Part shown: in pieces, positions 1 through 58,259 of the stretch
Layout of the letters: each line of letters starts with the position of its first letter
Numbering within the stretch: position 1 is the stretch's first letter
Source: Rhizaria sp. SCN 62-66
Lineage: Eukaryota
DNA: 59,149 nucleotides
Assembly (NCBI GenBank): GCA_001724265.1
Contig: MEDY01000031.1
Coordinates: forward strand, 62,001-121,149
Reading direction: 5' to 3'
Program-made: the position numbers and the translations under genes
The notes under the pieces: generated by a model
Database searches by the model: none
Told to the model about the DNA's origin: nothing
The model's input: only the letters and a program-made list of their open reading frames with translations

Positions 1-3000
1 TCTGAGTAGCGTCGGACTTGCCGGATGCCTTGAGCGTGAAACCGGAGGGCGAGAGAGGCGCGCGCGACGGGCCCTGCGTGGGCGAGCTCACGGTCTGCAG
101 CGGCGCCTGCGAAGCGGCACTCGCAACTGAAGGCGCCGCACCCGCGTCGAGTGAAAGCGCCTGCACGGTGGATACCGCGGGACTGGGCGACGTGAGCATG
201 TGGCTGCGCGGCGAGAGACCGAGGCCGAGCGCGGCGCGGGGCGAGGTCAACGGCGCGGGCGTGCCGTCGATGCCTGGAGACGACGACTGCGGTGAGAAGG
301 GACGCAACGGCACAGGGGACATCGCACGCGCCGGCGTGCCGGCCCGCGACAACGCAAGACCGGCCGCGCTGGACGCTGCAGGGGGCGCGAGGGTGGAGCC
401 AGAGCCAGCGAGCGTCGCGGCGGCGGCAGCAATAGCTGCTTGCTGCTGCGAAGGGAACATGTCACGCGGTGCGGTGCTCCGGTTGGCGCGCGCGGAGAGC
501 CCGCCGTTGGCGACGCTGGGGCGCGGCGACACGGCGCCCGTCAAGGCAGCGGCCTGCGTGATGGCCTCGCCCCAAAGCAGGTCAAGCGCGGAAAGAATAC
601 CGCTAACGCCAGTGGCGGCCTCGAGGTCAGACATCGACGCCGCCTGCACCTGTGCAACATCGTCGCCGACGCTTGCGGCGCTTTGGCCGGCAGGGAGCGC
701 AACGTTGGGCACGGCATGCGAGCGGTCAATGTCTTCGATCACCTGCGCGAACGACAGCGGCGACACGAACGATGCAAACACACCCGCAGGCGACGCGCTT
801 GGGGCCGGGACAGGCGATGAGTTGCCGGTGGGCGCAACGGGCGAGGTGGGCGGCATTGCGTTGGACCCGAAGAGGCCCATCTTGCAGCGCGTCGCAGCCG
901 CAGCGCCAGCATTGGCGCCGAACATCGGGACGTCCTTGCCCAGCGCAAATGCGCCGGCGTCGCGCAGCCACTCGGTGTATGTGTGCGCGGCGTACGCCTT
1001 GGTCTGCGGGTCTTTAGCCCACAGCACGAGAAGTGGCGAGTGCGGTAGCGGCGACCCTGCGGCAACGACGCCGTCAGCGCGCTGCGGCACCGTGGACACG
1101 ATGGTGCCGTATAAGATCGACGGCGCAGCAGCGACAGGCACGCGGCGTGAAGGCAACAGCTGCACGCCGGCCATTTCAGGCTGCGTGAAACCCAGCAGCC
1201 GCTCAGGACCGGCGGGGTCGGGGCCGGCGCTGGCATGCGCACGCGGAGCCGTGTGTCCAGGTGTAGTAATCTCCTTGCTCCACTGCAGTCCGCCTTCAAG
1301 CGCAGTCTCGGCGGACAGGATCGATGCGCAGATCGAGTTGGGTCGTTGTATCACCACGCGCAGACGCCGTGCGAGCGATAGGTAGCGCGCGGCGGGCGCG
1401 GCAGGCGCCGCTGCAGGAGCGGGTGCAGACGGCCCGACCGGCACGGCGCTCACTGCACCCGCGGCGCCAGTCCGCGCGGCGACGGGGGAGCGCACCTTAC
1501 TCTGCTCCGATGCCGCGGAGTCGCCCGTGGGCACCACGACAAGCGGCTCGAGCATAGCGGGCGTCATCACGGGTAGTCCGTTAGCGTCAAGTGCAGGCTC
1601 GGCAGCAGATGCACCAGCTGTGGCAGCAGTGGCGAATGAGCCAAACATGGCAACAGGCTTGGAGTGTGGGAACAGGTCGTCATCGCCGTCCGGACCCGTC
1701 AGCGGGCTCATGAGCGCCGCAGCGGCCGCGGCCTCGACGGCTGCGGTTGAGCTGCGTCCATCACCTGACGTGCGCGAAGGACGCGCGCTCGTGTCTGTGT
1801 TGCCGGTGGCGATCATTCGCGGCGAGCTGCCCAGAATACGCGCGACAGCATCGCCGTCATCCTCGGGCTCGGCGTCTGCGTCGTCCTCAAGCATCGATAC
1901 GAAGCGGCCCAGTGGGGGCGCTGTCGACGTCGAGGGGCGCGGGCCCGGAGAGCCCGGCTCGGCGTTTGACTCAGCGATCATCACCACGGGCGCGACCGCG
2001 GGAGCGAGAGGTGTGGCGTCGGCTCCATTCTCAGCGTTTGGACTACACTCGTCGTCAGAGCGCTCGCCGCTGAGGCTGTTGTTGTCCTCAGAGGAACTCA
2101 TGGCGCGCTGATTGTACTGCGCCTGCAGCTCCTGCAAACGTGCGCGACTGGTCGACACCTGCTCAGGAGACGACGCTGAAACGTCATTGCTGGGGACCGC
2201 CTTGACGGGTGTGATGGAAGCCGAGGTGGTCGCAGCAGAAACCTTTGGAGCAGATTTAGACTCGGCGGTGTTTTGCATGGAGCGCTCTGCGTCGCACTCA
2301 ATGATTGGTGTCAGATAGTAGAGGCCATTCGCGTCGATGGTCACACCGTCGGCGGCAGGCACTGGCGCGACAGGAGCGGCCTCAACGACAATCGCGGTCT
2401 GCTTAGGCTGCTGCTCGGAAATGTCCAGCAAAAGCGCCGTGCCAGAGCCTGAAGTTGGACAAGACGCCGCCTCGTCGAAAGATACATGCGAAGCCGCCTC
2501 AGATGTAGGACCTTCCTGCGAGGGCGCGAGGCTCTGAGGCGTCTGGGCCAGCGGGTGCTCGGTTCGCATGGCAAGCGACCCCGCGCCGTGGCCCAGCGTG
2601 GACTCGACCGGCGACGACACCGTCATGGGCGCGACTGAAGGCGACAACTTTGCAGCCGTGTTGCGCAGCGGCGCAGACACGACGCGCATAGCAGGCACCG
2701 GCGGCGATAGATAATCGGAGCCTGCAGCTGTTCGGCTCGACTCGATCTGCTGGTCAGCCCGTTCAGCGTCAAGACGGCCAATCGCATCGACGACGAGCGC
2801 TGCCGCGCGGTTTTGGAGCTCGCGCTGCACACGCGTCGGGGTGTTGCCCGTGCTCGCCTCTGAAGCGACGAGGGTCGCGACAGCTAGCGCACGCGCACGC
2901 GCCTCGCGCGACATCAGCGGGGCCGAGGCCGCGCTCGCGCTGCTCGATACCACAGAGACGCTGGTCGAGCGCGCCAGGTCTTGCGTCGAAGGTGTCTGCA

Positions 3001-13444: not shown

Positions 13445-14237
13445 GCGGGTATACGAGTGTGCGCAGGGTTGACGCAAGCGTCAAAGCTGAGTGCGCGCGG
13501 TGATTGGTTCTTCAAGTTATCCTTTGACGCGTATACAGTGCGAAGTCTCTAAACCAGGGAGAGGAGGCCCAGCCTGCTTGATCAAACTGAGGGAAACGAG
13601 TGCATGGAGGAAGAAGGTAGTGGGTAAACAAGTCAGAAATGCGTGACATCTATAAAATAATAATTATCAGGTCGAAATGCCTCGGTTTAATCGTCACAGC
13701 TTATTTGGGTACGGGTGTGGAGGCAATCTGGAATTGGTCTCGCAGCCACGCCTGAATAAAAAAACAGGTGAATTCCAGCGTGTCAACGCGCGTTATGTGT
13801 ACAGCATAGTGCGGTCCTAGATGTGTCAGCATATTGCATTTCGGATATTTTAATTACAATTCTCTTCTAAGTGAGGCCACGCTTACATATGAACAAAAAC
13901 GTGACTGGGCTGTTTGTGTTGTGGGCACAATCCTTCCCCAAAACTTGCGTTCGCAAAAAAGTCGAGCGAAGAAAACAAAAAAGAGCGAACGACGAGGACG
14001 AAGTGCGGGGCCTGATTGCGGGGAAGGATACTGCTGTCACTGAACAGTCGTTAAACGTGCTCGCTTATTTTCTTGGTTGCATGGTCACTTTGCCATATGA
14101 ATATGCATTTGTATCCCGTTCAAAACATACGCTTTTACTCCGTCATGTACATTCTTGAAACACTGCGTTTCCTCACTTTAATGCGTCGTGCCGCCTAACT
14201 TTTACGCGTTTTTGCGCTCTATAGCTTCATCTCCAAG

Positions 14238-29450: not shown

Positions 29451-32400
29451 TCATGCTTTCCCTGCGTCAGCAGCAGAGGACTGCTTGAGGCCAGCGAGCT
29501 CTGCGCGCAGCCGCGCCAGCTCGATGTCCTTGGCGATCAGTGCGCGGTCCCGGGCTTCAATCTCATAGCCTAGACGCGAGAGCAGTGCGTCACCAGCAGC
29601 GGCAGGCGCAAGAGGGACCGTGGCCTCGACTGTGGCGACAGCAGCAGACACTTCAAGTGCAGTGGCGGTGCGGCCAGTAACGCCGGACAGCACCGCCACG
29701 GCGCCGGCCTTGGCCGCGGACACGCCACGCATGCGTTTGCATCCGCCGCGGACCACAGCAGCCAGTGCAGAGCCCGGTGCGAGACTCCCGCGCCGCGCCT
29801 GCTGCGCCTGCGAGCGCGAGTGCGAGCGCGCTGCCGCGGCCGCCCAGGGCCCCAGCCCGGCCCCCGCGCCGCCGCTGCCGCCGCACGAGAGCCCCACCGC
29901 GCCGCTCGCACCAACCAGCGCGCCGCCCGCGGCCGCGGAGGCGCCCAGCGCGGCCAGCGAGCTCAGCCCCAGCGGCCGCGAGTGCCCGTGGCCAGCCGAG
30001 CCACCTGCCGCAGTCGCAGCGTCGCCGCCGCCTCCGCGCGCGTGCGAGCCGTGCGCTCCGTGCGCGGTGTGGCCGCCGCCCATGTAGTGCGCGCCGTGGT
30101 CCCTGCCCGCGCGTGCGCCCGCGCCGCCCGCGGCGGCCGCGGCGGCCGCGGCGGCGCGCGCGGAGGCGGCGGCGTGGTGCGGCAGCGCGTGGCGCGCCGA
30201 TAATGCCCGCAGCACGGTCTCGGTCGACGCCGTGGGCGCGAGAGCGGCCCAGCGCAGGTAGTAGTCGCTCCACAGCTGCACGCGCTCCAGCGCCGGCTCC
30301 AGCAACGGACACAGCGGGTCGCGGAAGGCGTAGAGCGGGGAGCGGAACTCGAGCCGGCGCGCGTGCACCGCGGTCCAAAGCGAGCGCGTTTGCAGGTGCA
30401 GCTTGAGGCGGATGCGCTCGGCGACGGAGTTAAGCATGAAGGTGCCGTAGAGCCCCGAGCCCAGCGAGTCGGCAATGAAGGTCAGCAGCGCGGGCGTGAA
30501 CTCGAACTCGCACGGGTACTGCTGCGTCAGCTGCCACACCGCGTCCAGGAACATCAGGAACGCTGGGGACACTTCGTCTGCGCCGGCGGCTGAGGGCGCA
30601 GTCGCCGCCGCGATCGCAGTCACGGACGCCGACGCCGAGTGCGGCCCGCCAGCGCCGGATCCAGAGCCAGAGCCAGAGCTAGAGCCAGAGCCGGAGCCGG
30701 AGCTTGCTGAGTTCTGCGCGAAGCTAAATCCAGCCCCGCTGGCAGTGGGTGACGCGACGCCGGAGCCGTTGTCGCCGCCAAGCGCGCCCGCGGCAGACGC
30801 AGCGGTGGGAGTGCCGAGTCCGCCTTGTCCAGCGCCCGCCGCGCCAAAGCCCACGGATGCGGAGCCAGAGGCGCCAACGGCTGCGGGATGCGGCGCGTTC
30901 GTGGCGGTGAAACCGACGAAGCCGGTGCGGTCAGCGAAGCGGTGGCCGAAGGATAGCCACTCTTTCTCGATGAGCACGATGAAGCCCGGCATGGTGCGGT
31001 AGAACGGGTCCAGCATGAGCTGTGCAAGCGCGCAGAGCTGCGGCGTACGGTCCCAGCCGTCGGTGCAGTGAACGAGCACCGACGTGCCCTGCTTGAGCGT
31101 GGCGGCGACGTAGCCCGCGCCCGCGAGTACAGCGCCGACGAACTCGAGGTAGCCCGTCGCGTGCAGCTGCGCCTGCCAGTCCGCGGGCACGCGCCCCACG
31201 TCGGACACTCTGCTTACCAGCCCGCCCAGTGCCGCATGCACGCGCCGCGCCGCCTTGATGTTGCCTAGGTTCAGGAACTCCAGGCGCAGCCGCCGCAGGG
31301 GGCCCGCCTCGTAGTTCTCTGCGGACTCGAAGCTACACAAGGACAACAACGGGAAATTAGAGTAATGATATATGAGGCATAGGTGTGAGAAAGTGCAATA
31401 AAGAAATGTTGGCAAATCTGCAAAGATTAAAAAAAATTGCATTGACTCTGTGATGTCGTACCCTCCTTTGGCGACAAAGTTTGCAAGCGCATTGATACGC
31501 TGACGCGCGTCTGCGACGACGAGGACGCCGCCAAGCCCAACGCATGCCTGCAGCAGCAGCTCGTCCGCCGCGCACCGCGCACCCATCACGCCCACAGTGG
31601 GCTGCGCCGAGCGCATCAGCACCGCGGGGTTCGCTGCGCGGACTGTGGCCGCAACGGGCACGACAGCGGTGGCGCCCGGGACAGCCGCGCCGTTGGCCGC
31701 CGTGTTGACTGTCACTGCGGCCATGCCGGCGACGCGCGCGGCGGGCGAGGTCCACACGACGACCGGCACGCGGCGGTGCGAACGGAACGCGGCCGCCGCT
31801 TCTAGCTCCGCGGCCGTGACACCGCGCGGCACGGCCAGCACGTCCGGGTACGAAGGGCAGAAGGCAAACGTGTCGTTGACAAACGAGAGCTGGAAACGCG
31901 GCGAGGGCAGCCCCAGACGGCGGTACTCAACAATGGGCGAGTAGAGAAGCCAGCCGTTAAGCCGCGGCGAGTGCCACCAGCGCTGCGCCAGCGCCGCAGG
32001 CAGCGCCAGCGCGGGCGGCGCGCCGAACAGCGAATGCTGTACGAGCGCGCGAGGGGCCGGCAGCGGCGCGGAGCTGAACGCCGCCGCGTACGCCGCGTCG
32101 ACCGCAGCGTCCAGCGCCTCGCTGCTGCCGCCGTCCTCCTCGTCCTCGTCGTTATCGTCACCGCCGAGGTAACCGTGGTAGCCGCCGAGCGCGGCGATGG
32201 CGGGGACCGAGCCGGGCGCGGGCGCGTCTGGGTCGACGCGCGCGCCGGCCTCCACTGCGGCCGCGGCCGTGCGCAGCCACAGCGCCTGCAGCGCGGGCGA
32301 CGGCGCGCCGTCGGCGCCAGTGCCCGTCAGCGCGCCCGCGCCGGCCGCAGCGGCTGCGGGGTCGGCCAGCGGCAGCGGCGGCGCGAAGGCAGCCATGAGG

Positions 32401-34861: not shown

Positions 34862-36626
34862 GGGTGATGGCGACGGCGACTTGCGCTGTCGGCGCGGCCC
34901 CGGCGCTGGACGGCGCGGGAACCACAGTCACGGGCGTGCCGGGTGACACCGCAAGCGGGGACATGTTCGGGCGCGAACTGGATGACTCCGCGGCAGTCGC
35001 AGCCACCGCGGTCGGAACCGCAGCGGCGGTCATAGCGGCGGAGACAGCCGCCGTGGCCGTGGCGGGCGCCGGGAGCGCAATAGGCTGGCTCTCGCCCGTG
35101 TGCGTAGCAGAAACCGGGCCTGTGGCATGGCTGGCCGCCGGGCCGTGGGGCCCTGGGCCGTGGGGCCCCGGGCCGTGGGGTCCGCCGTGGTCGGCCGAGG
35201 GCAGCGCGCCGGGCGCGCAAAGAGCGACGGTGCGTTCGGCTGCCACGGCCGGGTCGGCATCGGCCGCGGGGCCCGCGAGCGCAGCGTGGCGGCGGCGTGC
35301 GACCTCAGCGATGACCGTGAGCGCGCGCAGCACCGTGCGCACGCCGGTCACGCTCAGCTCGTGAACTCCTCCCCTCGATGGCGCGGAAGTCAAGTCGCTG
35401 CTGGAAGTCAAGCCGCCGCCGCGAGAAGTGGCGTTGCTGTTATTCGAGGCGGTGGTAATGGAGCTGCTTGTGGAGGGCACGAGCACTGGACATGCGACCG
35501 AGTGGCAGAGCTGATCAGCCACAACCACGGAGCCACTGCTTGCAGTCACCGCGCTGTCGCCACCAGAGGCAGCAGTGAGCAGGCCTGAGAGGTCCGGCGC
35601 GGGGAGACCACCCGCTGCGCCGCCCGCGCCGCCCGCGGGCGCGGCAACCCGCAGCAGCGTGGCGCGCGCGCGCGCGACGTCGCGCCTGCGCTCGCGGCGC
35701 AGCACCTCTACCGCGCCTGGCACGGGCAGCGCTAACGCGGCGCGCGCGGCGGCGGCAGAGGCCGAGGCGGCGGCCGCGGCCGCGGCCAGCGCGGGGCCCG
35801 ACACGGCGCCCGAGCCGATGCCGCTGCCCGCGCCCGCAGCGGCCGCGGCGGCGTCTGCGTCGGCCTCGGCGGCGGCGCGCTCGAGCCGGCGGAGCACGTG
35901 CAGCGCGCGCGAGGCCTGCTGCTGCAGCAGCGCGACCGCGCGCGCGTGCGCGGCCGCAGCGACGGGCGCAACGGCCGAGATCGCAGCCGCGCCCGTCGCG
36001 CGCCAAGGCGCCGCCGCGGGTGGGCCGCGGTACAGCGCGGCGCGCAGCAGCACGGCCTGCACGTGCTCCGCTGGCGACGCCTGGAGCTGGGACGAAAACA
36101 GAGCGGTCGCGCGGCGCAAGCGGCGCGGCGGCCGCGGGGCACGCGCGCGGGGCCGTGGGCGCGCGGGCGTCGGGTCCGGAGACGGGCCGCCCGCCCCCGC
36201 AACTGCTGACGACGATGCAGCCGATGACAACGATGATGTCGCGCTATTGGATGATGCGGGCGTTGCGGAAGACTCGGCGGCGAGCAATACCGGCGCGCGC
36301 GGGGAACCGGGGCGCGGCGGCACAGCGGCAATGCAGACCTCGCACACGCGCACGGGCTCGGCCGCGACCTCTGGCAGGCGTGCGCGGTGCGGCGTGCACG
36401 CGGCGCAGTAGACGTTGCCGCAGATGTGGCAGTGGTGCTTGCGCGTCGCCGCATCGAAGTCGGTCCCGCACGCCTTGCATGCGGCCGCCAGCGCCGACGG
36501 AACAAAGTGCGAGTCAGCGCGCACGCGCTGGATGCCCACGGGCGCGCCCGACAGCGACAACGACAGCGCCGGCGGCGGCACGCTCAAAGGAGAGCCGCGC
36601 GGCAGACGCGGGGACGGGGACGACAT
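29451..36626 (-). CDS. Myotubularin-family phosphoinositide 3-phosphatase with an N-terminal FYVE domain (~2,350 aa)
   Basis: FYVE: CKAC..F..TRKHHCHICGNVYCAAC..RVCEVC. Phosphatase: FCPSYPDVLAVP, FRSHRRVP, RSAQP, VLVHCTDGWDRTPQL, LDPFYRT, LIEKEWLSFGHRF, QQYPCEFEF. Intron 31461-31333 (GTACGA..TAG). Confidence 0.93.
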
Positions 36627-37175
36627 CCCAGGCGTGTGAGGCGCGGACAAGAGACTGATCGGTGTACAACTCGGTTCAGTAGTCGTGCGATGCAGTGAAC
36701 TACGCTGGCAAAGTGAAGCGAGTGATGGATATGGGCGCGGGCATGAGTGAGCAAGGGATATGTGACTGGAGGGCGTATGAATCTTCTCTTCATATGATTC
36801 GCCTCGCCATAGCCAGCACACGGTAGTGAGGACTGGCAACAAAGTTAGCAGAAAAAATAGATATTAACCCGTTGTTTAAATACAATAAGTCGTAATAAAT
36901 TCTTAGAGGCCGTGTACTTTGGCTCCGAACGCCTCCGAAGTGGGCCGGTGGGGTACAAAGTGTGGTGCTCACGATAGGGCTAAACGAAATTGTATCGCAC
37001 GACCCACAATGTCCGTCTATCTAAGTGCTCTAACGTTATCATATCAAACTTTGAGTAATTACAATTATTGTACAATTATACTCTCAAGTAATTTAGAATT
37101 CTTCTGCTATCCCTTCTAGAACTAAGAAGCACGCCGGTCTGAAGTTGCCTCACAACCATATCGCGGATCCCCACC

Positions 37176-39323
37176 ATGGACGCGGGTTCTATCCTTGCTG
37201 AGGCACCGCAGCCGAGCGCCGTGCCGCACAACGCGTTTCGCGCGTACGAGCGCGCGCTGAAGCAGACGAAGCACCAGAGCGGACGCTACATCCTGCCCAG
37301 CGATCTGGGCTGTGTGCTAGACGTGCGCGGCGAGCTGCCCGCGCACGCCTCCGCGGCCGCGCGCGTCGTCCCCGTCGCGTCCCAGCGCGTCGACGGGACC
37401 TGGGATCTCCACGTCGAGCCCGGTTTCGACGCTGACTGGAGCTACGAGGCCCCCGAGCTCACCCCCACCGGCGCAATTGCTGCCAACGCTAGCATTACAG
37501 CCGCCGCGAAGAACACTGCTACCGGCGCTAATCCCGCGGCGCCGGCGGCCGCGCCGGTACGCGGCCCCGCACCGCCGCCGCTGCCGACGCGCGCCGCGGC
37601 TGCGGACGCGTGCGGGCCCGGCCACGCGCGCGTATTCGCGTTCCGGCACGCACCCGGGCTGTTTCTCGTCTCGCGCGCGCTCGACTCGCGCGAGCAGTTC
37701 GCCTGGGCCCTGCGCGCGCTCACGCAGTTCGCCGACGCGCCCTACACGAACCTCACCAACCTGCACGGCGCCGACCGCGACAGGACGGCCGAGCTCTTCT
37801 GGCGCGCGTGCCGCGCTAACGCTGACGCCGCGGCCGACGCCGGCCACCAGCAGCGTCTGCATAAGCGCGCGCGCACCGCCGCCGCCGCGACCGGGACGCC
37901 CGTCACCGCTGCTGCCGGCGTTACAAAGCCCGCTGTCGACGACGCAGAGACCGGCGCGGGCCCCGCTGAGCGCTCTGCGCTGCCGCTGCCGTGTCCGTGC
38001 CGGCCGTCGCCGCTGGGCGCGCGATCGCTGTATGAGTACCTCGACTGGCCGGGGCCCAGCGGCGCGCCCGCCACTTTCGCGCCGCTACCCAACGCCCCAA
38101 CGGCGAGTTTGCACAGTGACGCAGTGGCGGGGCAGAGTGGGGCGCAGGAGGACTGGGAGCTGTGCGAGTGCGAGCGAGGCGCGTGTCCCACTGCAAACCG
38201 CTGCCACTTGCGCTGGCCGTCTGCGAACGACGCTCCCAGCGCAGCCGAGTCAGAGACTGCGAGTGCGCATATGAGTGACTGTGAGCGTGGACGTGACCGT
38301 GCGTGTGGGGCGTGCTGGCTGTCAACGCAGCAGCCGCACGTGCCGCCCTCGCTCCGCCCTGGCAACCCGGTCGCCGCGCAGCCCCCACCAGTCCCATCGG
38401 CCGACTCGTCAGCTACCGCGGCGGCGACGACATCAGATGGCAGCGCAGCGACGCCCGCGAGTGCGAGCGCGAGCGCGAGTGCGGCGCTCCCCCGCAGCGC
38501 GCTGCCGCGGCCGGCGGACCTGTCGCTGCTGGCGCCGTTGCGCTGGGCGTCGCTGGGCGCGCGCTACGACTGGACGGCGCGCGAGTACCTCGACGCGGGC
38601 CCCTCGGCGCCCGCACTGCCCGCCGCGCTGGCCCAAATCACGACGCGGGTGCTAGCCCCCTTGACCGCCGCCGGCCTGGTCCCCGCGTCGGCTCCGGAGG
38701 CCGCACTCGTGAACTTCTACCCGCTGGGCGGCGCAATGGGCGCGCATGTCGATGACGCCGAGCCCGCGGTGCGGCGACCCATTGTCTCCGCGTCGCTGGG
38801 CGCGTCGGCGGTGTTCCTGGTCGGCGCCGCGACGCGCGCGCTGGCCCCGCTGGCGCTGGCGCTGCACTCGGGCGACGTCATCGTCCAGGCGGGGCCCGCG
38901 CGCAGGGCGTTTCACGCCGTCCCGCGCGTGCTCGAGCGCTCTTCGCCCCTCCGCGCGCTGCACGCCGCAGCCAGGGCGCTCGTCGAGGCGCGCGCGAGGC
39001 AGCAGGTGCAGAGCAAAGGGAGCGAAAACGATACTCAAGTTACTGCGAGTGGCGACGGGCAGCGGCAAGAGCGCGACGCGGTCGAGAACGAGTTCTGCGC
39101 GCTGATGGACGCGTGCGCGGAGACGCGTTTGCGGTACGCGCTGAGCTAGCGCGAGGTCGTGGAGTTCGTGTTAACGGTGCTGGGCGTATACCGCATCAAC
39201 TTCAACACGCGACAGGTCTCCGACGAGGGCACTATGCACCCGCTGGACGTGCGCAAGCACTTCCCCGTCGACGCGGTGCTCAAGGGCGTCTACGCAGGCG
39301 ACTCACTGCCAAAGGCGGAGTGA
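37176..39323 (+). CDS. ALKBH1: ALKBH1-like Fe(II)/2OG dioxygenase, read through an in-frame TAG at 39147-39149
   Basis: LRWASLGARYDW, EAALVNFY, GAHVDDAE, PIVSASLG, LHSGD, FHAVPRV lie before the TAG; RINFNTRQV lies after it; TGA at 39321-39323. Confidence 0.9.
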
Positions 39324-39547
39324 GTCTGGGCTCGTGCGACGCGGATGTGTGCATTTATATAGCGACCTCTGTTACGGTGTGAGTGACGCTTACAAAACCA
39401 GCCTCAGCTGCTCGCAGTCGAGGGTCACAAGAAATCGTCAGATTTGGTGAAAGATTCCGTTGTTTAAGAATATAATATCGCCATCGTAAATTTACATAGA
39501 GAACCTATTTATTACTAATTTATTATCTCTTGAATTGTTTGTCTTAG

Positions 39548-42500
39548 ATGTCTTTCCTTCGACTGCCGTCTTGGTGCGCGCAGTCGCATGGAAAGGTGAT
39601 CGCCGCGCTTGGCGAAATGGGCATGTGCGCCTACTGCATGCTCCGTTTTCTCGACAACCGCAGCGAACGGTTTTACAGTCTCCCCGAACACGACCTCATC
39701 GAGGTCATGCTCCCTGAGGAGTTCTGCAATCCCCCCGCAGACGCCCCTGTGGCTGACGCCACTTCGACCGCTGCCGCATCAGCCGATCCCGCTGCCGACG
39801 CCGTTCCCGCCGCCGCGCAGGCGCCCGTGCCCGTGCACGAGCACCTGCGCGGCGCCAAGACCGCGTTGCAGACGCGCGGGTACTGCCCGCTGTGCTACGA
39901 GCTGCTGCCGGTGAGCGAGCGCGTGTGCGACCTGGTGGCCGCGGCCGTGGCCGACGCAGACTACGAGTTCTCCGACTTCTTCCTCGCGCGTACCGTGCCT
40001 GCGCCGCTGGCCATTCGCCAGCACGGCGCCTGGATTGCGCTGGGCCGCCGATTCCCCGGACTCGCGCCGTTCAGCGACGACGCCGGCATGGAGAAGCACG
40101 TGGTCGAGCTCAAGGAGGCGGCCAAGCTCGCGCACCCTCCGCGCATCGCAGCCGCCGTGAACCGCCACCGCGCGGCCCGCGCCGCGCGCACCGTTGCCGT
40201 CGTCGCCGCCGAGCGCGGCTGCGCGGCGCCACCGCTGCCCGCCGCGCTCGACGCGCTGCTCACTTCAGAGACCCGCGCCGCCGCAGCCGCCGCGGCCGCC
40301 GCGGTCCTGGGGGTGGCGTCGCTCCCGGCAGACGCGCCCACCGTCACGCTCGACGCGCTGCTGGCGACGCCCGAGACGGACGAGCGCGGCGCTGCTGTGG
40401 GCGGCGGGGACGCGGACGCGGACGCGCCGCGCAGCTCTGCGGGCACCGACGCAGGCCGCCTGCATACGCGCCTCGTGAACCTCGCGCCCGCTACTTTAGC
40501 AGCGCGCGAGGGCGACTTCACGATCAACACGCTGTACCTGGCGGCGCCCGTGCCCGCGGCCGCCGAGGCCGCGCTAACGGCCGAGATCGAGCGCGCGCAG
40601 GGCGCGTTCTCCAATGGCCGCCGCAACGGCCGCGGCGGGCGCGGCGGCGGCCACGGCGGCGGGCGCGGCGGCCACGGAGGGGGTTTCGGCAACGAGAACA
40701 ACCACAACCGCGGGAGCGCGCTGTCGATCAACACGAACCTGCCTAAGACTATCGGCAAGGTCTCGTGGACGACGCTCAACGCGCACGGCTTTGCGCCGCC
40801 GCGGCTGCCCACCGCGCCGCTGGCGCCCGGCACGCAGTTGACGGCCTCGGGTCCGCAGGTGCCGTATCTAATCCAGGCCGCGGTACCGGTGCCGGTGCGC
40901 GCGGCGACGCCCGCCGCCGCCGCCGCCGCCGCGGAGGCCGCCGCCGAGGCCGCCGCGCGCGGGGTGAGCGTGCTCGCGGCCCACTACGCGGCCGTCTCCG
41001 GCACCGAGGCCGTGCCCATGGCCGACGACTGCGCTGACACTGCTGCAGCAGCGAGCACCAGTGCCAGCGCCAGTGCCAGTGGGGGCGCGGAGTGCTCTGA
41101 GAGCGCGGAGCGCGACGGCACGGAGCAGCCCGACGCGAAGCGGCCCTGCCTCGCCTCTGTCGTCACAAACGCAACTGCCGCTGGCGCGAATGCGAGCGCG
41201 AGCGCGAGCGATGCTGCGGTTGTGCCGCCGCGGGGTTCCTTCGTGCCGACGGCGCTGGCGGTGCTTTTGGCGCGCGACCGCGACCGCGCGGAGCCGCGCA
41301 CGGGCGTCAACACGGGCGCAGTCATCCAGATCTCGCCGTATCTCTGCGTCGAGGTTGCGTGCTTCCACCGCAGCCTCTTCGTCATGGGCATGTACGAGAA
41401 GCTCAGCCGCGTCGTCTCGCAGTCGGCCTGGTACGTCCCGCTGCTGCCCCATGAGCTCTCGGCCGTCACTGCGGCGACGGCGACCACGACTGCGAGTACT
41501 GCTGAGGCTAACGGCGACGTCGCGCTTGACCCCACTGGTGCCGCTGCCGCCGCTGCTGCTGGGGATGCCGTGGTGAGCGGTGACGGCGACGCTGATGATA
41601 AGGACAAAGATGACGACGACGGCGACGACGGCGGCGGCGACGATGACGACGAGGACGGCGGTGGCGGCGGCGCTGGTGTGCCTGGTGGCATTGTTGCGCG
41701 CCAGAGCCGCGGGTTTCAGAAGAAGCACGCGACGACGGCCGACGAGGACGAGGGCGGGCCCTTTGCGGAAACCTCGGTCGAGTCCGAGCTGGCATTCCAC
41801 CTGCTGCCGCACTTCTGGCCCGGCGGCGTGGCGGGCTACCGGGCGGCGCCGCGCGGCGCCCCGGGCCCCGCGCCGCCGCAGCTGGCGTGTGACCCCCGCG
41901 GCGTGCGCGCGCGGTCCGAGGCGGCATGCCACCCGTCGGCCGCGCTCGTCGACGCCACGACGCTGGGCTTCACGCGCGCCGCCACGGGCGCGCTGCCCGC
42001 GCTGGCCGCCGCCACGGACGCAACGGCCGCGTCGCTGGTTGCGTACAGCGGGTACCGGTTCAAGTTCCACTCGTCGGGCCGCGAGGACCTCAACGTCCGC
42101 ATGCTCGGCTCGGGCCGCCCCTTCTTCCTCGAGTTCACCGACCCGCACCGCGCCCCGCGCCTCACGCCGGCGCTGCTCGCGCGGCTGACCAGTGTGATTA
42201 ATGCCAACGCGCTGGCCGTGGCGCTGCCCGCGCCGCTGCAAGCGGGCGACACGGCGGCCTTCGCGGCCATGACGCGCGGCATCGGCGAGAAGCGCAAGCG
42301 GTACCGCTGCGTGGTCCACTGCGAGCGCGCCATCGCGACCGCGGCGGAGCTGACCGCCGCCGTGGACACCGAGCAGGAGCTGACCATCACGCAGGAGACG
42401 CCGCTGCGCGTGCTGCTGCGGCGCTCTGCGCTGGCGCGTGTGCGTACCGTGAGCCGTCTGCGCACGCAATGGCTATCGCCGCACTGGTTCGTGCTCGACC

Positions 42501-42634
42501 TCGAGACGCAGGCCGGTACTTATGTTAAGGAGTTCGTGCACTCGGACCGCGGCCGCACCGTGCCGTCGGTCACCGCCATGCTCGGCGCGCCCTGCACCAT
42601 CATCCAGCTCGACGTCACGGACCTCATTATGTGA
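39548..42634 (+). CDS. PUS10: tRNA pseudouridine synthase Pus10
   Basis: N-terminal CxxC..CxxC, GMYEKLSRVVSQSAW, FHSSGREDLNVRMLGSGRPF, QETPLRVLLRR, TQAGTYVKEFVHSDRGRT, QLDV. Confidence 0.93.
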   Translation: MSFLRLPSWCAQSHGKVIAALGEMGMCAYCMLRFLDNRSERFYSLPEHDLIEVMLPEEFCNPPADAPVADATSTAAASADPAADAVPAAAQAPVPVHEHLRGAKTALQTRGYCPLCYELLPVSERVCDLVAAAVADADYEFSDFFLARTVPAPLAIRQHGAWIALGRRFPGLAPFSDDAGMEKHVVELKEAAKLAHPPRIAAAVNRHRAARAARTVAVVAAERGCAAPPLPAALDALLTSETRAAAAAAAAAVLGVASLPADAPTVTLDALLATPETDERGAAVGGGDADADAPRSSAGTDAGRLHTRLVNLAPATLAAREGDFTINTLYLAAPVPAAAEAALTAEIERAQGAFSNGRRNGRGGRGGGHGGGRGGHGGGFGNENNHNRGSALSINTNLPKTIGKVSWTTLNAHGFAPPRLPTAPLAPGTQLTASGPQVPYLIQAAVPVPVRAATPAAAAAAAEAAAEAAARGVSVLAAHYAAVSGTEAVPMADDCADTAAAASTSASASASGGAECSESAERDGTEQPDAKRPCLASVVTNATAAGANASASASDAAVVPPRGSFVPTALAVLLARDRDRAEPRTGVNTGAVIQISPYLCVEVACFHRSLFVMGMYEKLSRVVSQSAWYVPLLPHELSAVTAATATTTASTAEANGDVALDPTGAAAAAAAGDAVVSGDGDADDKDKDDDDGDDGGGDDDDEDGGGGGAGVPGGIVARQSRGFQKKHATTADEDEGGPFAETSVESELAFHLLPHFWPGGVAGYRAAPRGAPGPAPPQLACDPRGVRARSEAACHPSAALVDATTLGFTRAATGALPALAAATDATAASLVAYSGYRFKFHSSGREDLNVRMLGSGRPFFLEFTDPHRAPRLTPALLARLTSVINANALAVALPAPLQAGDTAAFAAMTRGIGEKRKRYRCVVHCERAIATAAELTAAVDTEQELTITQETPLRVLLRRSALARVRTVSRLRTQWLSPHWFVLDLETQAGTYVKEFVHSDRGRTVPSVTAMLGAPCTIIQLDVTDLIM

Positions 42635-44174: not shown

Positions 44175-44967
44175 GCCGATCGCTAATTGCAGTAAAAAAA
44201 CAAAAACAAGCAAGTAAGCGTAATTAATATATAATTGCGTAATTATATCTCCTGAGCTTCACGTTTATACCACGAAGACGGCTAAAATAATCAGTGACCA
44301 CCGCTTTTTGACGGCTCGCTCTCCGATCCCAGCCGTCGTCCAGAGAGTTCTCTAGCGTGGGGGAAATCCACGTCTGTAACTCCCCATGGCGAGTCTGCGC
44401 AGGCCTCTATTGCCTTTTTCTGTACTTCTAAGGCACATTTCTCTATCTTTTCAATAGTTAACCTTGGCTCTGGCTCATGAGTCGCGTACACTGTCCCTCC
44501 GTAAAGTGTGGGACGCAACGACTCCCTTGCCCACAGTGGCTTTACCCGTCGCACCTGCTCACGCCCACTAGTTCTTTTTTGCAACATTTGTCAGGCTGTG
44601 TCCAAGTATAGTGCAAGCTGGTGGGCCTCCCTAATTGCTCCTTGACATCCCCCACTCCGTAATCCCCTGCCGGCGAGCAGCCCGCGACGGAGAATGTCAT
44701 CAACGACCACACCATTCGACATCGACATTGACGACCAGCGTCTCATGCGGAACCCAGTACGTCACTCAATGCGATATCACTTTGGAACTCGGTATTTTCG
44801 CATTTTTTGTATCATATGTACCCTTTGAAGCGCAAAACACTTTCTCTAAACCAACATTCTCGCCCATTTTCCGAACCCAACCCTGTCATACATCACAGAG
44901 CCAAATTATCAGACAGAAGAAGATTTTCCAGGCCGGAAAGTCTTCTCAGGTGCTTGGCGACGACGCC

Positions 44968-46497
44968 ATGACGGTGCCCTTGGCGGCGCACCGGCGCAAC
45001 CCGTCGGGTACGCTTGTGGGCGGCATTCCCGCGTCTGTGGCCGCGCAGTTGTCCCCGCTGCACGCCTCACGTACCCGCGACGCCGTTATCTTGCAGCAGC
45101 AGCAGGCGCAGCAGCAGCAGCAGTCGCAGCCCTCTTCGGACCGCGACACGTCGCGCGACGGCCCCTACGCCGCCTACTACGCGCCCGGTGCCTCGGGCGT
45201 CATGACCGGTATGATTGGCGTGGGTATGGGGGGTGTGAGCGGCATGGGCATCGGCGTTGGGCCCGGCCTGGGATTCAACGCCGTCGCCACGGGGCCCAAC
45301 TCGTTCGAGTTCTCCCCGCTGGGCGACCCGCAGCCGCTCCCTCTGACGCTGACGCAGCCGCAGACTCAGCAAACGCCCACGTCGTCGTCGTCGTCTGCGT
45401 CGTCGTCTGCGCCAGCGCTGTCGTCGTCGCTGTCATCATCGACGCCCCCGATCCAGGCGCCGTCCCCCGCGCCCGCGCCGCTCATCTCGCTCCCGGCCAC
45501 GCTCGCATCGGCTTCTGGCGTCCCGGCCTCGACGCTCACCGCCTTCAACGCCTTTGACGCCGGCTTGGCCAGCGGCAGCTCCATCAGCCCGCGCTTCGGC
45601 CCCCGCGCGCCCGCCGCCGGCGCGGGCCCGCCCGGGGCGGAGCTCTCGGACGCGCAGTCCTCCGTCGCTGCATTTAGCACCGCCAGCAACAGCCCCTACG
45701 GCGGCAGCGGCGGCAGCGTTGGCGGCGGCGCAACAGCGGCGAGTGGTGGCGGCAGCGGCAGCGGCAGCGGCAGCGGCAGCGGCACTGGGACGATGCCCGA
45801 CGGCCTGCTGCTGTTCGACACCGTCGACGGGTCGTCGACGGCGGTGGCGGCGCTGGCTGCAGGCACCGTGACGCACCGGCCGTCGTCGCACCGGCTGCCG
45901 TCGCCGGTCCCGCCGCGGCCGCGCACCGTCGCGCGCACAGGCTCCGCGGTTGACGCCGCGCTCTCCTCCTCCGGCTTCCTCCCCGTCAATAACGCGAATA
46001 ACAACAGCAACACTGTGAACATCAACAGCAACCTCAACAGCTCGTTCAACAGCAGCGCGGCGAGCATGGGCAGCGTTAGCGTGACGGGTCCGGGGGCAGA
46101 GGCTGGTGACGCGCCTGCGCCGCACACGCCCGCCGGCTCCGTCGCCGCGCAGTCACGTACGCAGGCGCAGTCTCAGCAGCAGCAGCAGACATCGCCGCCG
46201 CGGTCGCACGTGCGGTCTGCCTCGTCCTCCACGCTGCCTCACGTATCCACCACCAACTCCTCCGCATCAGCCTCAGCATCAGCCTCAGCGTCGGCCTCGG
46301 CCGCGGCCTCTGGCTCAGCGTCTGGCTCTGCGTCGGCCTTCGTCTCTGGTTCTGCGTCGGCCATGGGCGAGCACAGCCCTCCCGCGGGCCCGCAGTCGCA
46401 TTTGCACTCTCATTCGCACCCGCACGACCCCGCTGTTTCATCCTCGTCGTCCTCGGTCGGCGGCGGCGGCGGCGACGGCGGCGGCAACGGCGGCGGT

Positions 46498-46532
<35 letters not shown>

Positions 46533-48083
46533 TGTGATGTCGGTGGCGGCGCTAGGCGAGTCGCTGCGCGCGCTGCAGCGGGAGCAATAGCTGCTGCTGC
46601 AGCACGCCGACCGCCTCCACGTGCAGCAAACGGCGCTCTGTGACGCGCTCGAGGAGCATACTGCGCGTGAGCCCGCGCTCGCGGCCGCCGCCGCCGCCGC
46701 CGCGGCTGGAGGCGCCGCGGCCGCGGGCGGCGCGGGCACGCTGCGGGCGCACCGCGCGCGCACGATGCAGCTGCAGGAGCGCCAGCTGCTGCTGCAGCAG
46801 CACCAGCACAACCTGCTGCTGCAGCAGCACTCGCTACAGACACGCCAGCTCGCGCTGCAGCAGGCGTACCTCGACTCGAAGCAGAGCACGCTGCGCGCAC
46901 TCTCCGTCTCGCACCCCGCGTCCAGCTCAAACTCCCCCGTCGGCGCGCGCGCGCACCGCACCAACTCCGCCTCGGGCGCCTCGTTCGCGTCCACCAGCAC
47001 CAGTGCGGCGCCCAACGGCTCGTCCTTCGGCTCCGCGCTCGCTGGCACTGGCACGGGCGCTGGTACGGGCGCTGGTGCGGTTGTGGGCGGTGCGCTGGCC
47101 GGCGGCGGCTCGCCCTCCGGCTTTGTCCGCACGTCGGCCGGTCTGGGCTCCGGCTCAGGCTCGGGCTCGACCGCGTCGACCGGCTCCCCGCAGCCGCGCG
47201 CGCTGTCCCCCGCGTTTCCGGGCGTCGCCGTCGGCGTCCCCGGCTCTGCGGGCGCGGGCACGCACTCCAGCTACGGCGGCTCTAGTGCGGGTGCGGCGGG
47301 CGCGTCGCCGCCGCCCAGCTCGCGCGGCGTGCCCCCGCAGCTCTACTGGGCCGGCGACACCGGCGTCGGCGCCACTGCGGCGACCGCGGCAGCGGCCGCG
47401 GCGACACCAGCGGGCGGGCGCATCCTGACCCCGCTGCACGGCGCCGCGTCGTGCCCCACCTCGGCCGCCACGAGCGCGGGCGCCGGCGCGCCGCTGTCGC
47501 CGCTCGCCGGCATGGCCACGACGGCCGCGGCAGCGCAGCAGGCCGCCGCCGCCGCCGCCGCCGCCTCTGCGGGAATCATCCGCAGCCTCTCGCCAACCGG
47601 CTCGCCCGTGCCCTCAGCGCTGCCCTCGCGCACCAACTCGCGCCTCGCCGGCGGCGTCGGCACCGGCGTGTCGCCGCTGATGGCCTTCCGCGCGCTGTCA
47701 CTCACCGCCGCCACGGCCGCGGCGGCGATTCTGGCGCCCGTCAGCACCACCAACTCGCCCGTGCCCGGCGGCGCGGCCGGCAGCTCCGGCTCCCCCACCG
47801 GCACTAACACTGGCGCTGGTGCTGGCGTCGGCGTGGGTCTGGGACCGAACGCGATGCCCGCGCCCGCGCCCGTGCCCGCGGCGGCGATCGCGGCTGCGCT
47901 GGCGGCGGGCGGGCCGCTGCTGTCCGCGGCTGGCGGGTCCCCGCTGAACCCCGCACGCCGCCAGCCCTCTTTCTCCGCCACAGCTGCGGGCGCCAGCGGC
48001 GCCGCCGGCAACGGCAACGGTGGTGGCAGTGGCAGCTCACAGTCGCCGGGCCTCGTCGCGGGCGCCCTTGTCCAGCACACGAT

Positions 48084-48124
<41 letters not shown>

Positions 48125-49608
48125 CTCTGCAGTCGCTGTCACCGACGCCGACGCCGGTGATCTCGCTGACGCACCCGCCGCTGGTGACCTTCGACGGCCC
48201 GCCGCGGCCCGTCCCGCTGGGCGCCACCGCGGGCTACACAGCCGGCGGAGTGCCGGGCCAGCTGGCGCTGCCGGCGCAGGCCTCTGGCTCGGGCACGGCC
48301 TCGGGCCCGGGCTCGGTGTCGGTATCACCCGCGCTCTCGCCCGCGCATTCACTCCAGTCGCAACAGCAGTCGAAGCCCCTGTCTGCGGGCCCCACCGGCC
48401 CCGGCGCGTCCCCCGCGGGCGGTCTGTTCGGGTCCGCGTCGAGCCTGAGCGTGCCCCCCTCGGCCACGTCGGCCGGCGGCGGCGGCGGCGGCGGCGTGGC
48501 GCCCGCGTTAGGCCCCGGGGGCTCGGCCTCGCTTCACTCGCACTCGCTGTCAGTCTCGCACCCGCCGCCGCCGGGCGCCCTCGCGCTCGGAGCCACCGGC
48601 GCCACCGCCGCGGGCGCAACCATGGGCGCAGCGATGGGCGCGTTTGCGCGGCAAGGCAGCGGCGCCGCGGGCCCCGTGCCCGGGCTCGGCGCGCAGCGCA
48701 CGTCCTTGACGCTGCCGCGCGGCGGGTTGGGGCTGAGCCTCGGGCTCGGGCTCGGCGCCGTCCCCGCCGCGGGCGCCGTGCCCGGCTACGGGCCGCAGCA
48801 GATCGCCGTGGGCTACGGCCCGCAGCCGATGTACGTGATGCCCCCCGCGGTGGCGTCGCGCCACGGGCCCAACTCTGGGCTGGGGCTCACGCACGCGCAC
48901 AGCCTCGGCCTCGGGCTTACAGGCGGCACCGGCGCGACCGGCGGCGCAACCGGCGGCCCCAGCGGACTGCCGGCCGTCGCGGGCGGCGCCAACGCGGGCG
49001 GGCCGCTCTCGGTCTCCGCCGACGACGCCGCAGCCGCCGCAGCCGCCGCGATCGCGATCGGCGGCGCGCCTGGCCCCAAGGGCTCGGTCTCGATCGGCTA
49101 CGCGGCCGCGCCGGGATTCGCGACAGCGCCGGGTGCCAACGCGGGCCCCGCGCTGGGCCCCGGGATGGGCGCCGCGCTGCCGGTGGGCGCGGACGTGCTG
49201 CTGGTCGAGGACGTGCGCGTGAGCTCCAAGGTGGCCGAGATGGCGCTGCGGCGCGAGCGCTTCACGACAATGCTGGTCGAATCGGGCGAGGACGCCGTGG
49301 CGGCGGCCAAGAGCCGGTCGTTCCGCGTGATCCTGATGGACATCCACTTGCCTAAGATGTCTGGCATCGAGGCCACGCGCGCGATCCGCGAGGACGAGCA
49401 GCGCTGCGGGCGCGCGCCGTGCCTCGTGCTGGCCCTCACTGGTAACGTCGCCGCCTCGGATCTGCAGACGTACCGTGCCGTCGGCATCGACGGCTGCATC
49501 GCCAAAGGCCGCCTGCTCGGAGACGCGCTCAATAAGGCGCTTAAGGCCAACCAGGCCTTCCCGGGCAAGTTCGTCTCGATCATCGACAACGACGTCAAGG
49601 TCTACTAA
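44968..49608 (+). CDS. Large low-complexity protein with a C-terminal response-regulator receiver domain, read through an in-frame TAG at 46588-46590
   Basis: ORFs 44635-46590 and 46621-49608 share a frame with a single TAG between; REC motifs VLLVED, VILMDIHLPKMSGIEATRAIR, LALTGN, GIDGCIAK; TAA stop. Confidence 0.82.
46501..46530 (+). repeat. (TCG)10 coding microsatellite, poly-Ser
   Basis: Read directly from sequence. Confidence 0.9.
48085..48123 (+). repeat. (CAG)13 coding microsatellite, poly-Gln
   Basis: Read directly from sequence. Confidence 0.95.
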
Positions 49609-54048: not shown

Positions 54049-55555
54049 TCACTCCGCGCTGTTATCGTCGTCTTTCTTCTCGGCGCTCTTCTCCGCTGCC
54101 GCAGCAGTCGCCGCCGCCGGTGCGTGCTCCATGCCGAGGATCTTGTCCGCGTCGAGCACGAGCGTCAGCGGCGCGTGGTCCGAGATACGCCCGGCCTCGC
54201 CGGCGCCGCTGCCCGCGAGGCGCTCGTCCCCGACCGCGACGCCGCGCAGCGCAGCGCCGGTCAGCGCGGGCGAGAGCAGGAAGTAGTCGATGCGCCAGCC
54301 TGCGTTCTTGGCGCGCGCCGCGAAGCGGTGGCCCCAGTACGTGTACCCGCGCCGCGCGGGGCCCCAATGAGCGCGGAACGCGTCCGTGAGCCCGCCGCGC
54401 AGCAGCGCACTGAAGGCCTCGCGCTCGTCGTCCGTGAAGCCCTTGGAGCTACGAGAGAGAAAATACGCAAAACATAGTACAAGATACAACAGAGTATCCA
54501 TCAGATCTACAAGATATAAATGCAAAGATAAGCAGCCAACGCATCGTGAATAGCAAAATATATCGCGAGAAATGTGGATAGCGCAGTGTGACGTACTTGT
54601 GGTTGGTCGACGGCGAGTGGAGGTCGATGGGCCTGTGTGCGACGTTGAGGTCGCCGCACCACACCACGGGTTTGGCCTCCTGCAGCCGGTTCAGGTACTC
54701 GCGCATTGCCGCCTCCCACACGCGCGCGCGGAAGTGCAGGCGCTCGAGCTTGTCGCCCGCGTTGGGCACGTACGTCCCCACCAGGAAGAACGCGGGGTAC
54801 TCGACGGTGATCACGCGGCCCTCGCTCGCGTTGATCGCCCAGGCCTCGGCGTACGCGGCCGCGGAGACGTCGGGCGCCGCCGCGTTGGGTTCAAGCCCCT
54901 CACAGCCCGTCTCGTGCGCGATCGCGGGCACGCGCGCCAAGTTCGCGGCGGGCGGCTTGGCGCGGTTGTCCGCGTCGAAAGGGCGCGGCGCGAGCGAGTC
55001 GGTGCACGACACGCGCAGTGGCTTGCCCAGACGGCCGTCCTTGCGCACCAGCAGCGCCGTGCCCGCGTACCCAGCCGTGGTGCCGCAGTTGTAGTGCACA
55101 GCGTAGCCCAGCGTGGCCATGCCCTCGCGCACGCCGACGAACTGCGCCTCGGTGCCCTTGACCTCCTGCAGCATCACCGCGTCTGGCCGCGGCGCGCGCG
55201 CCTTGAGAAACGGCATCAGCTTGTTCTTGACCGCGGCGCGGAGCCCGTTGACGTTGAAGGTCATGATGTGCACGTCCGACGCGCGCGCGGGCGAGGGCAG
55301 CGCGGTGTCGGACTCGTCGACCTCGCCGACGTCGTCCTCCGCGCGCGCGCCGCCCTTGCGTGCGGGCGACTTAGAGGGCGCGCTGCCCTCCTCGCTGTCG
55401 CCCGTCGACACGCGCGCGCGGCCGCGCTTCGCAACGGGGGCCACCACTACGTCGTTCGAGTCGCTGGCCGTCTCGGTCTGGGTGGCAGCGGCGGCGGGGG
55501 CAGTCGACTTGATCGGCGATGCTGCACGCTTGCGCGGGGATTGGCGTGTGCTCAT
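54049..55555 (-). CDS. APEX1: AP endonuclease / exodeoxyribonuclease III family (APE1-like), 2 exons
   Basis: TFNVNGLRA, LQEVK, GYAGTA, EGRVITVEY, YVPNAG, WCGDLNVAH | intron 54596-54449 | GFTDDER, DAFR, YTYW, GWRIDYFL, SDHAP. Confidence 0.93.
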
Positions 55556-57515: not shown

Positions 57516-57571
<56 letters not shown>

Positions 57572-58259
57572 TTCCGGGGACGTGTGGGTGTGCGGCACAT
57601 GCACATACAACAACAAGCCGCTCGTCCCGCAGTGCGGCATGTGTAGCGCCACAAACCCGGTGTACTTGGCCGCGCTCGAGCACGGTGACGACTTCGCGCG
57701 CGCCGGCGACGACGACCACGGAACGCATGCTGCCCATGGTCAGTCCTCCACCGTCGGTTCCCGGTCTAATAATAACAACAACGGAGGGGACTACGTGCGG
57801 CCGCCGGATGAGACGCGTCGCATGCGCCTCATGGACGACTTCGACTCTGCGCCCGCGTCGCGGTCCGTCAGTAACGTCAGCAACAGCGGCGCCGGGCACA
57901 ACAACAACAGCAGGGCGCGCGCGGCGGTGCGGCCGTTCAACTGTGAACGGTGCACGCTGTTTAACGAGGCCGGCAGCGAGGCCTGCGACGCGTGCGGCTC
58001 CGCGCCGCCTGCCGACGCGCTCCCGTAGGCAAGCCCCTCCTCATCAGCAGCCCGCACTCCCAGCGGCAACGGCGGCAGCGGTGGCGGCGGCAGCGGGGGC
58101 TTCATGTCGCAGCTGATGGGCGCGGGGACCATCCCGGACTGGACGTGCGAGAACTGCCATACTGTGCAGCCGGGGAACATGGCGCGCTGCCGCGCGTGCA
58201 ACATCCCCAACGAGCAGTTCCTCGCTGCGCAGAACGAGGGCGGCTGCACCGTGCAGTGA
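56157..58259 (+). CDS. OTU1/YOD1-like deubiquitinase with ubiquitin-like N-terminus, three RanBP2-type zinc fingers and CaaX, read through an in-frame TAG at 58026-58028
   Basis: IQVRGPD..LLAGFPP; VPSDNSCLFHAV, WGGAID, HYDAL; fingers WVCGTCTYNN..CGMC, FNCERCTLFN..CDAC and, after the TAG, WTCENCHTVQ..CRAC; ends CTVQ-TGA. Confidence 0.88.
57516..57572 (+). repeat. (GGCGCG)n coding hexanucleotide repeat, (Gly-Ala)n linker
   Basis: About 9 copies, read directly. Confidence 0.9.

Follow-up and report, generated by a model that had tools for sequence, protein, structure and literature searches.

A UAG codon within an ALKBH1-like gene as a probable rare sense codon in the nuclear code of a GC-rich uncultured eukaryote

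Nuclear genetic codes in which UAG alone has been turned from stop to sense have been described in just a few lineages. Such codes are used by Rhizaria sp. exLh, where UAG specifies leucine, and by Iotanema spirale, where it specifies glutamine (Panek et al. 2017, PMC5304391); in phyllopharyngean ciliates UAG has come to encode leucine or glutamine (McGowan et al. 2024, PMC11687900), and in filamentous ascomycetes UAG codons interrupting genes are restored by A-to-I editing of the mRNA (PMC11156358, PMC10776026, PMC5496914). Here we analyze a stretch of 59,149 nucleotides (the window) from Rhizaria sp. SCN 62-66 (contig MEDY01000031.1, positions 62,001 to 121,149 of the forward strand; assembly GCA_001724265.1), in which a gene for an ALKBH1-like 2-oxoglutarate/Fe(II) dioxygenase contains an in-frame TAG. 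The comparative evidence makes it, in our view, quite likely that the nuclear code of this organism uses UAG as a rare sense codon, with TAA and TGA serving as terminators.

The gene (37176..39323, + strand) runs from ATG to TGA over 715 codons, one of which is the in-frame TAG at 39147..39149 (+; site 1); the enclosing open reading frame (ORF) extends from 37143 to 39149, with its first ATG at 37176. Past the TAG the frame continues for 57 codons (REVVEFVLTVLGVYRINFNTRQVSDEG...LPKAE; 39150..39320, +) before it meets a TGA (39321..39323, +), which is the real terminator of the gene and is followed by an AT-rich spacer (GC 0.46 and third-codon-position GC, GC3, of 0.47 in the next 171 nt). An earlier note on this DNA had laid out the region as RLRYALS, TAG, an intervening segment, PKAE and TGA, and this matches the sequence exactly, in frame with the ORF 37143-39149. 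The GC contents at codon positions 1/2/3 are 0.68/0.33/0.88 in the 57 codons after the TAG versus 0.70/0.50/0.82 in the 60 codons before it. Across the three in-frame TAGs of the window (sites 1, 2 and 3), GC3 in the following 57 codons is 0.88, 0.88 and 0.86, respectively; in the 171 nt that follow each of the 14 TAA or TGA stops examined, GC ranges from 0.38 to 0.65 and third-position GC is at most 0.60.

An exhaustive HMMER search recovered full-length orthologues of the ALKBH1-like protein from other metagenomes, and three lineages among these cross the TAG column without a gap, each with one residue. The window sequence YALS-TAG-REVVEFVL aligns with YGVS-A-ETVVDFVL on contig L002 (GC 0.62), with YQLS-I-EEILTFLL in the proteins P0002 and P0151 from the AT-rich contigs L003 and L004, and with AGIT-I-EEALEFLI in P0003 and P0155 from L005, a 310-kb contig with a GC content of 0.51. 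Alignment with orthologues, one of the checks proposed in the earlier note, thus yields a single sense residue at this column, namely alanine, isoleucine and isoleucine. The L002 protein is the closest ALKBH1-like relative (58% identity over residues 540-707), the peptide beyond the catalytic motif of the tail (VRKHFPVDAV) is also conserved among the orthologues, and the N-terminal architecture of the window gene recurs in P0002, P0151 and P0155. On L005 (9806-14939) the ALKBH1 gene adjoins a gene for Pus10, as it does in the window (37176-42634); therefore, we regard these as true orthologues from related organisms. The L005 Pus10 gene lies on the opposite strand relative to the window arrangement, and the C-termini of the two Pus10 proteins are nearly identical; a scan of genome contigs with the Pus10 C-terminus turned up no relative. 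L002 shows one frame change at about 1800-1810, within the conserved IVS.SLG segment (tblastn pieces in frames 2 and 3), probably through an assembly error of one base in this 2.7-kb contig, whose coverage is low.

The TAG is real at the level of the DNA, and the sequence downstream of it continues the same coding frame, is conserved and aligns collinearly with the orthologues. A 5065-bp contig from another metagenome record (L001) is identical to positions 35900-40964 with 0 mismatches, TAG included, and contigs from further data sets, namely X2 and X3 (38350-40872) and X4, from a 2025 study (38975-39554), show 0 differences and likewise carry the TAG. The X2 and X3 data sets yielded the same pieces and could be a single data set that was filed twice; none of the DNA pieces listed for X2-X4 covers site 2 or site 3. 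Sequences of the organism turn up repeatedly in runs from bioreactors, wastewater and activated sludge. The earlier note had named a sense codon in the reads as one outcome that would speak against sense decoding; the contigs from the other samples all have TAG at site 1.

These observations bear on the possibility that the TAG is a true stop, whether it arose by a recent nonsense mutation (in a pseudogene or as a polymorphism among strains) or by a mistake in sequencing or assembly, with the tail being a decaying remnant. The public gene catalogues would agree with such a stop: the callers give a product cut at the TAG (P0001; P0156, 657 aa) and have entered the tail as a 54-aa protein in its own right (P0055). 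Nevertheless, contigs from several samples and studies agree exactly in their DNA, the tail displays full codon periodicity and its identity to L002, and three nonsense mutations would have been needed within 59 kb, all of them TAG, accompanied by no frameshift and no TAA or TGA. We consequently regard a true stop as very improbable.

The identity of the protein shows what such a stop would remove. Read-through translations, with X at the TAG, served as Pfam queries, and the product of the site 1 gene matches 2OG-FeII_Oxy_2 (PF13532) with E 9.9e-31 and 107.9 bits (cut-off 31.2); the match spans profile positions 43-181 of 194, the last 13 positions falling beyond an insert. Among solved structures, ALKBH1 chains are closest to it in sequence (E 7.8e-24), with E. 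coli AlkB next (E 1e-13). We aligned the C-terminal 286 residues, whose numbering is used below, with 59 homologues from the HMMER search. Invariant in all 60 sequences, and encoded before the TAG, are H95 and D97 of the motif HVD (38745..38753, +), which constitutes the H-x-D of the iron-binding triad, and H151 (38913..38915, +), its distal histidine, in AFHAVPRV. After the TAG, RINFNTRQV (39192..39218, +) presents the pattern R-x-N-x-T-x-R (R-x5-R), in which R244 and R250 are invariant in the same 60 sequences and N246 is conserved in at least 90%. The R-x-N-x-T-x-R strand of the AlkB family binds 2-oxoglutarate. A phmmer alignment places RINFNTRQV opposite RVNMTVRQV of ALKBH1, a stretch too short to be significant by itself.

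A structural model computed by AlphaFold2 (AF2) on the homologue alignment has a mean predicted local distance difference test score (pLDDT) of 83 and a predicted template-modeling score (pTM) of 0.79, and shows a helix at 231-242 and a strand at 243-250 (YRINFNTR) with pLDDT of about 93-97. Foldseek searches with this model rank ALKBH1 first (E 5.5e-14). VIA-align superposes the model on ALKBH1 with Z 17.5 over 210 residues (root-mean-square deviation, rmsd, 2.9; model 1..262) and on AlkB with Z 17.5 over 151 residues (rmsd 2.7; model 23..254 on chain 45..214). R244 and R250 are presumably the counterparts of AlkB 204 and 210, which we take to be the 2-oxoglutarate-binding arginines, a placing that is implied by the range of the superposition. 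The reading of RINFNTRQV as the AlkB-family R-x5-R strand, put forward in the earlier note, is borne out by the invariance of the two arginines, by pLDDT above 90 and by its superposition on the C-terminal strand of AlkB; the claim that the catalytic motifs are intact on either side of the TAG likewise stands, with H95, D97 and H151 before it and R244 and R250 after it, each conserved in 60/60.

Both fold and sequence place ALKBH1 nearest among the solved members with a double-stranded beta-helix resembling that of the model, which supports the identification of the gene as an ALKBH1-like member of the AlkB family. ALKBH1, a nucleic-acid dioxygenase of mammals (PDB 6ie2, 6imc, 6l94, 6ksf), and E. 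coli AlkB share with the window protein the Fe triad, the R-x-N-x-T-x-R strand and the jelly roll, and ALKBH1 and the window protein both have a long insert between the distal histidine and the final strand. However, the window protein is approximately twice as long, owing to Ala/Ser/Pro-rich low-complexity inserts, and its N-terminal region is common only to the metagenomic orthologues. The tail encoded after the TAG is predicted by the model to fold as the last helix and a core strand of the AlkB jelly roll. Judged by alignment and model, a product stopping at the TAG would lack the final strand of the core together with the two invariant arginines; from what is known of the family, such a truncated product would be expected to be inactive.

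Treating TAG as sense merges coding-like ORFs at just two further places in the window. One of these is site 3 (58026..58028, +), within a gene for an OTU1-type deubiquitinase (56157-58259) with UBX-like, OTU and RanBP2-type finger domains. An orthologous protein of 672 aa with 61% identity (P0157) is collinear through the TAG column and has alanine there. Downstream of the TAG lies a third RanBP2-type zinc-finger motif, W-x-C-x2-C...C-x2-C (58140..58199, +), identified by eye against the two upstream fingers. The stretch that follows the TAG differs hardly at all from that of P0157, which shares W662, C664, C667, C678 and C681 of the motif as well as most of the intervening residues. Pfam searches with two short tails alone, including the 76-aa tail of site 3, returned no family at E up to 1. 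The earlier note had considered site 1 the strongest single piece of evidence, a ranking that we would not retain: the OTU1 site at 58026 is at least equally strong. The Protein Atlas confirmed the family assignments of both Pus10 and OTU1, and its record of the OTU1 product was deposited as 623 aa, stopped at the TAG. If UAG is sense, public annotation under the standard code is systematically wrong for this organism.

Site 2 (46588..46590, +) lies within a 1547-codon gene (44965-49608), where it joins ORFs of 541 and 1005 codons. The only Pfam domain of this gene is a response-regulator receiver domain (PF00072, E 9e-15) at the far C-terminus, downstream of the TAG. Across the junction GC remains at 0.65-0.88 with no AT-rich spacer, and every real intergenic spacer in the window is AT-rich. 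A word-indexed protein search with the segment around 46588 gave no orthologue at the thresholds used; in this and in a null search of the same kind with the C-terminal half of the ALKBH1-like protein, low-complexity words probably swamped the search.

That a TAG might be removed as part of a spliceosomal intron deserves consideration, for introns ending in TAG do exist in the window. One of 148 nt, AT-rich and of the form GTACGT...TAG, lies in the gene for an APE1-type endonuclease (54449..54596, - strand) and served as a negative control: its TAG (54449-54451, -) was rejected as a candidate sense codon, being the splice acceptor, with the frame changing after it and the ORF 54049-54690 continuing to a TGA. 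Another AT-rich intron, in a myotubularin-FYVE gene (31311-31500, -), leaves the frame open and is hidden within a 2,470-codon ORF. Both introns, the only clear ones among the genes tested, measure about 150-190 nt and have GTACG at the start and (T)GTAG or CGTAG at the end. At site 1, the 16 nt GTACGCGCTGAGCTAG ending at the TAG resemble the ends of such introns in miniature (GTACG...TAG), but removal of this 16-nt candidate, which we rejected, puts the reading frame out of register, so that it meets a TAA and the conserved strand is lost, in conflict with the collinear orthologues. Moreover, the ALKBH1, response-regulator and OTU1 genes contain no segment with GC below 0.45, in contrast to the AT-rich known introns, and any intron would delete conserved residues, given the residue-for-residue collinearity with the orthologues. 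The earlier note had also raised a splice event removing the TAG; none at site 1 is found among the best-supported joints listed, and the orthologues are collinear on both sides. We accord splicing hardly any likelihood, and intron, assembly error and pseudogene are effectively excluded as causes of the TAG at site 1. TAGs just upstream of three other ORF starts were treated as lying in 5' untranslated regions.

Stop usage across the window provides the wider setting. The 59-kb contig segment has a GC content of about 67%, with long ORFs and AT-rich spacers between them. The 14,520 annotated codons include 3 TAGs in frame but no TAA and no TGA, and out of frame the annotated genes contain 59 TAG, 86 TAA and 357 TGA triplets. 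Of the 16 coding sequences whose 3' end falls inside the window, a small sample drawn from a single contig, 6 terminate in TAA, 10 in TGA and none in TAG. Taken together with orthologues that are collinear, a conserved tail and two more window genes that behave alike, the absence of genes ending in TAG agrees with the sense decoding of UAG advanced in the earlier note.

A number of points weigh against a reassigned code. There are only three in-frame TAG sites in 59 kb, and TAG is rarer than any other sense codon in the window (3 versus 14 for TTA). If the three TAGs are counted as terminators, 3/16 is an ordinary share under the standard code, and therefore the case rests on the coding sequence downstream of the three TAGs; at site 2, the coding evidence downstream consists only of composition and a distant domain. 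On the related contig L005, 2 of 7 raw ORFs, not validated as genes, end in TAG. Scans for tRNA genes and Rfam families over the window and seven loci found no tRNA gene and no Rfam match, and among the eight listed pieces of X5, which are the longest contigs laid out for a polyA metatranscriptome, none crosses 39147, 46588 or 58026, which is uninformative either way.

Several of these points would equally fit a standard code with programmed, site-specific readthrough, or a dual, context-dependent use of UAG, such that both truncated and extended products are made: the sites are only three and UAG is extremely rare, a suppressor tRNA was not found in the window and the loci scanned, and a possible relative (L005) may still end genes at TAG. 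However, all three candidate TAG terminators precede coding sequence, so that readthrough would be needed for every TAG-ending ORF in the window, and it has to be reconciled with the 0 of 16 terminators that are TAG. Further, the truncated ALKBH1-like product lacks both invariant arginines, and therefore readthrough must be efficient; the 3' contexts of the three sites, TAG-CGC, TAG-CTG and TAG-GCA, are devoid of a common motif. On balance, we consider readthrough unlikely, if less so than a true stop. For a UAG that is sense throughout, the TAG-ending ORFs of L005 hint that the change may be recent and restricted to the lineage.

A further possibility is A-to-I editing of the mRNA, by which UAG would become UIG and be read as UGG, tryptophan, as in filamentous ascomycetes. 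Such editing would also select for TAG only, and the A of site 2 is situated in the 4-nt hairpin loop of a strong stem (46564-46614, +; -32.5 kcal/mol, z -3.5, 0/200 shuffles), with the UAG at the 3' edge of the loop. Yet this hairpin is built of complementary CAG and CTG codons from a Gln/Leu-rich segment, and sites 1 and 3 have no significant structure (z -0.05 and +0.59), the A lying in no hairpin loop there. Editing also leaves the lack of TAG terminators unexplained, and tryptophan fits the alanine and isoleucine columns poorly. Hence, this explanation appears to us about as improbable as that of a true stop.

The fit of different residues was assessed with an empirical substitution table derived from 1,314 aligned columns between window proteins and their closest relatives. 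The probability that the relative has alanine is 0.47 if the window residue is alanine, 0.07 if it is glutamine, 0.02 if it is leucine and 0.02 if it is tryptophan. All three TAG sites occupy variable positions, and the in-frame UAG is collinear with sense residues of orthologues at two of the three; the closest relatives, proteins of 58-61% identity, have alanine at both of these informative columns, while two more distant ALKBH1 lineages have isoleucine. Under a flat prior the share of alanine is 0.60, a value that reflects n=2 informative sites in proteins where alanine makes up 17-19% of residues, the OTU1 site lying in an Ala-rich linker. Alanine is thereby weakly favored as the leading candidate for the residue inserted at UAG, with glutamine and leucine, the meanings already known for a reassigned UAG, as the alternatives. 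We entertain as possible, though rather doubtful, the more specific proposal that UAG means alanine in the nuclear code and is read by a tRNA-Ala whose anticodon has mutated to CUA. Such a tRNA would be tolerated because alanyl-tRNA synthetase does not read the anticodon. A precedent for the capture of UAG by tRNAs of which the synthetases ignore the anticodon is provided by the mitochondria of sphaeroplealean green algae.

With UAG as a rare sense codon, the ALKBH1-type gene would be one uninterrupted frame of 715 residues, in which the ribosome inserts a single residue at 39147-39149. Translation past the TAG would then add the final helix together with the R-x-N-x-T-x-R strand, which rounds off the core of the jelly roll and binds 2-oxoglutarate. 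UAG would presumably be decoded by a tRNA with the anticodon CUA, and the release factor would be expected to read UAG poorly or no longer. The situation looks like an early or low-usage stage of reassignment, with UAG gone from the terminators and used in about 0.02% of codons, which is the example needed by theories that oppose codon capture to ambiguous intermediates. The lineages with such codes would thereby come to include a eukaryote that is uncultured, very rich in GC and met repeatedly in metagenomes of wastewater and bioreactors; if UAG should prove to be alanine, it would be a stop-to-alanine nuclear reassignment and a new variant of the nuclear code.

Among the other features of the window, an Ala/Ser/Pro-rich open frame of 4,493 codons (1-13480, -) extends beyond the end of the window; it lacks in-frame stops of any kind, and Pfam gives no match for it at E up to 1e-4. 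A small protein encoded at 14238-15008 (+) has repeated KKECDGKK-like units, belongs to no Pfam family and ends in CCIVM, a terminus that we take to resemble a CaaX prenylation box. The X5 RNA contigs differ from the window by a 3-nt deletion at 43366 and a 1-nt insertion at 50247, in small or unclear ORFs at a depth below 5; these may be errors or strain differences.

How, then, does this locus compare with the systems described before? UAG stands reportedly for alanine or leucine in the mitochondria of sphaeroplealean green algae. Those codes are organellar, whereas the window is nuclear, with spliceosomal introns and genes for ARPC3, Pus10 and myotubularin. In the literature searched, mostly at the level of titles and abstracts, we found neither a nuclear code with UAG as alanine nor a GC-rich wastewater eukaryote with such a code, the alanine cases being mitochondrial.

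Restorative editing in ascomycetes resembles the window in that intact-looking genes are interrupted only by UAG, but it needs hairpin loops, which only one of the three window sites fits, yields tryptophan and keeps TAG terminators (PMC11156358, PMC10776026). The phyllopharyngean ciliates resemble the window in that UAG was reassigned independently of UAA, in uncultivated taxa known from metagenome data; they differ in that their suppressor tRNA genes have been identified and they make wide use of UAG (PMC11687900). Further, the window is not ciliate-like, with its GC content of 67% and a TAA that terminates and is never sense. The closest parallels are exLh and Iotanema spirale, in which, as in the window, UAG alone occurs in frame, termination relies solely on TAA and TGA, and detection came through in-frame UAGs where the orthologues run through (PMC5304391). 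In the same account UAG is frequent in exLh (384 in 71 genes) and falls on conserved leucine positions, in contrast to the 3 in 14,520 codons, at variable positions, of the window (PMC5304391). The window differs from both exLh and Iotanema spirale in that its closest relatives have alanine, and not leucine or glutamine, at the two informative columns, and in that its genome has a GC content of about 67%.

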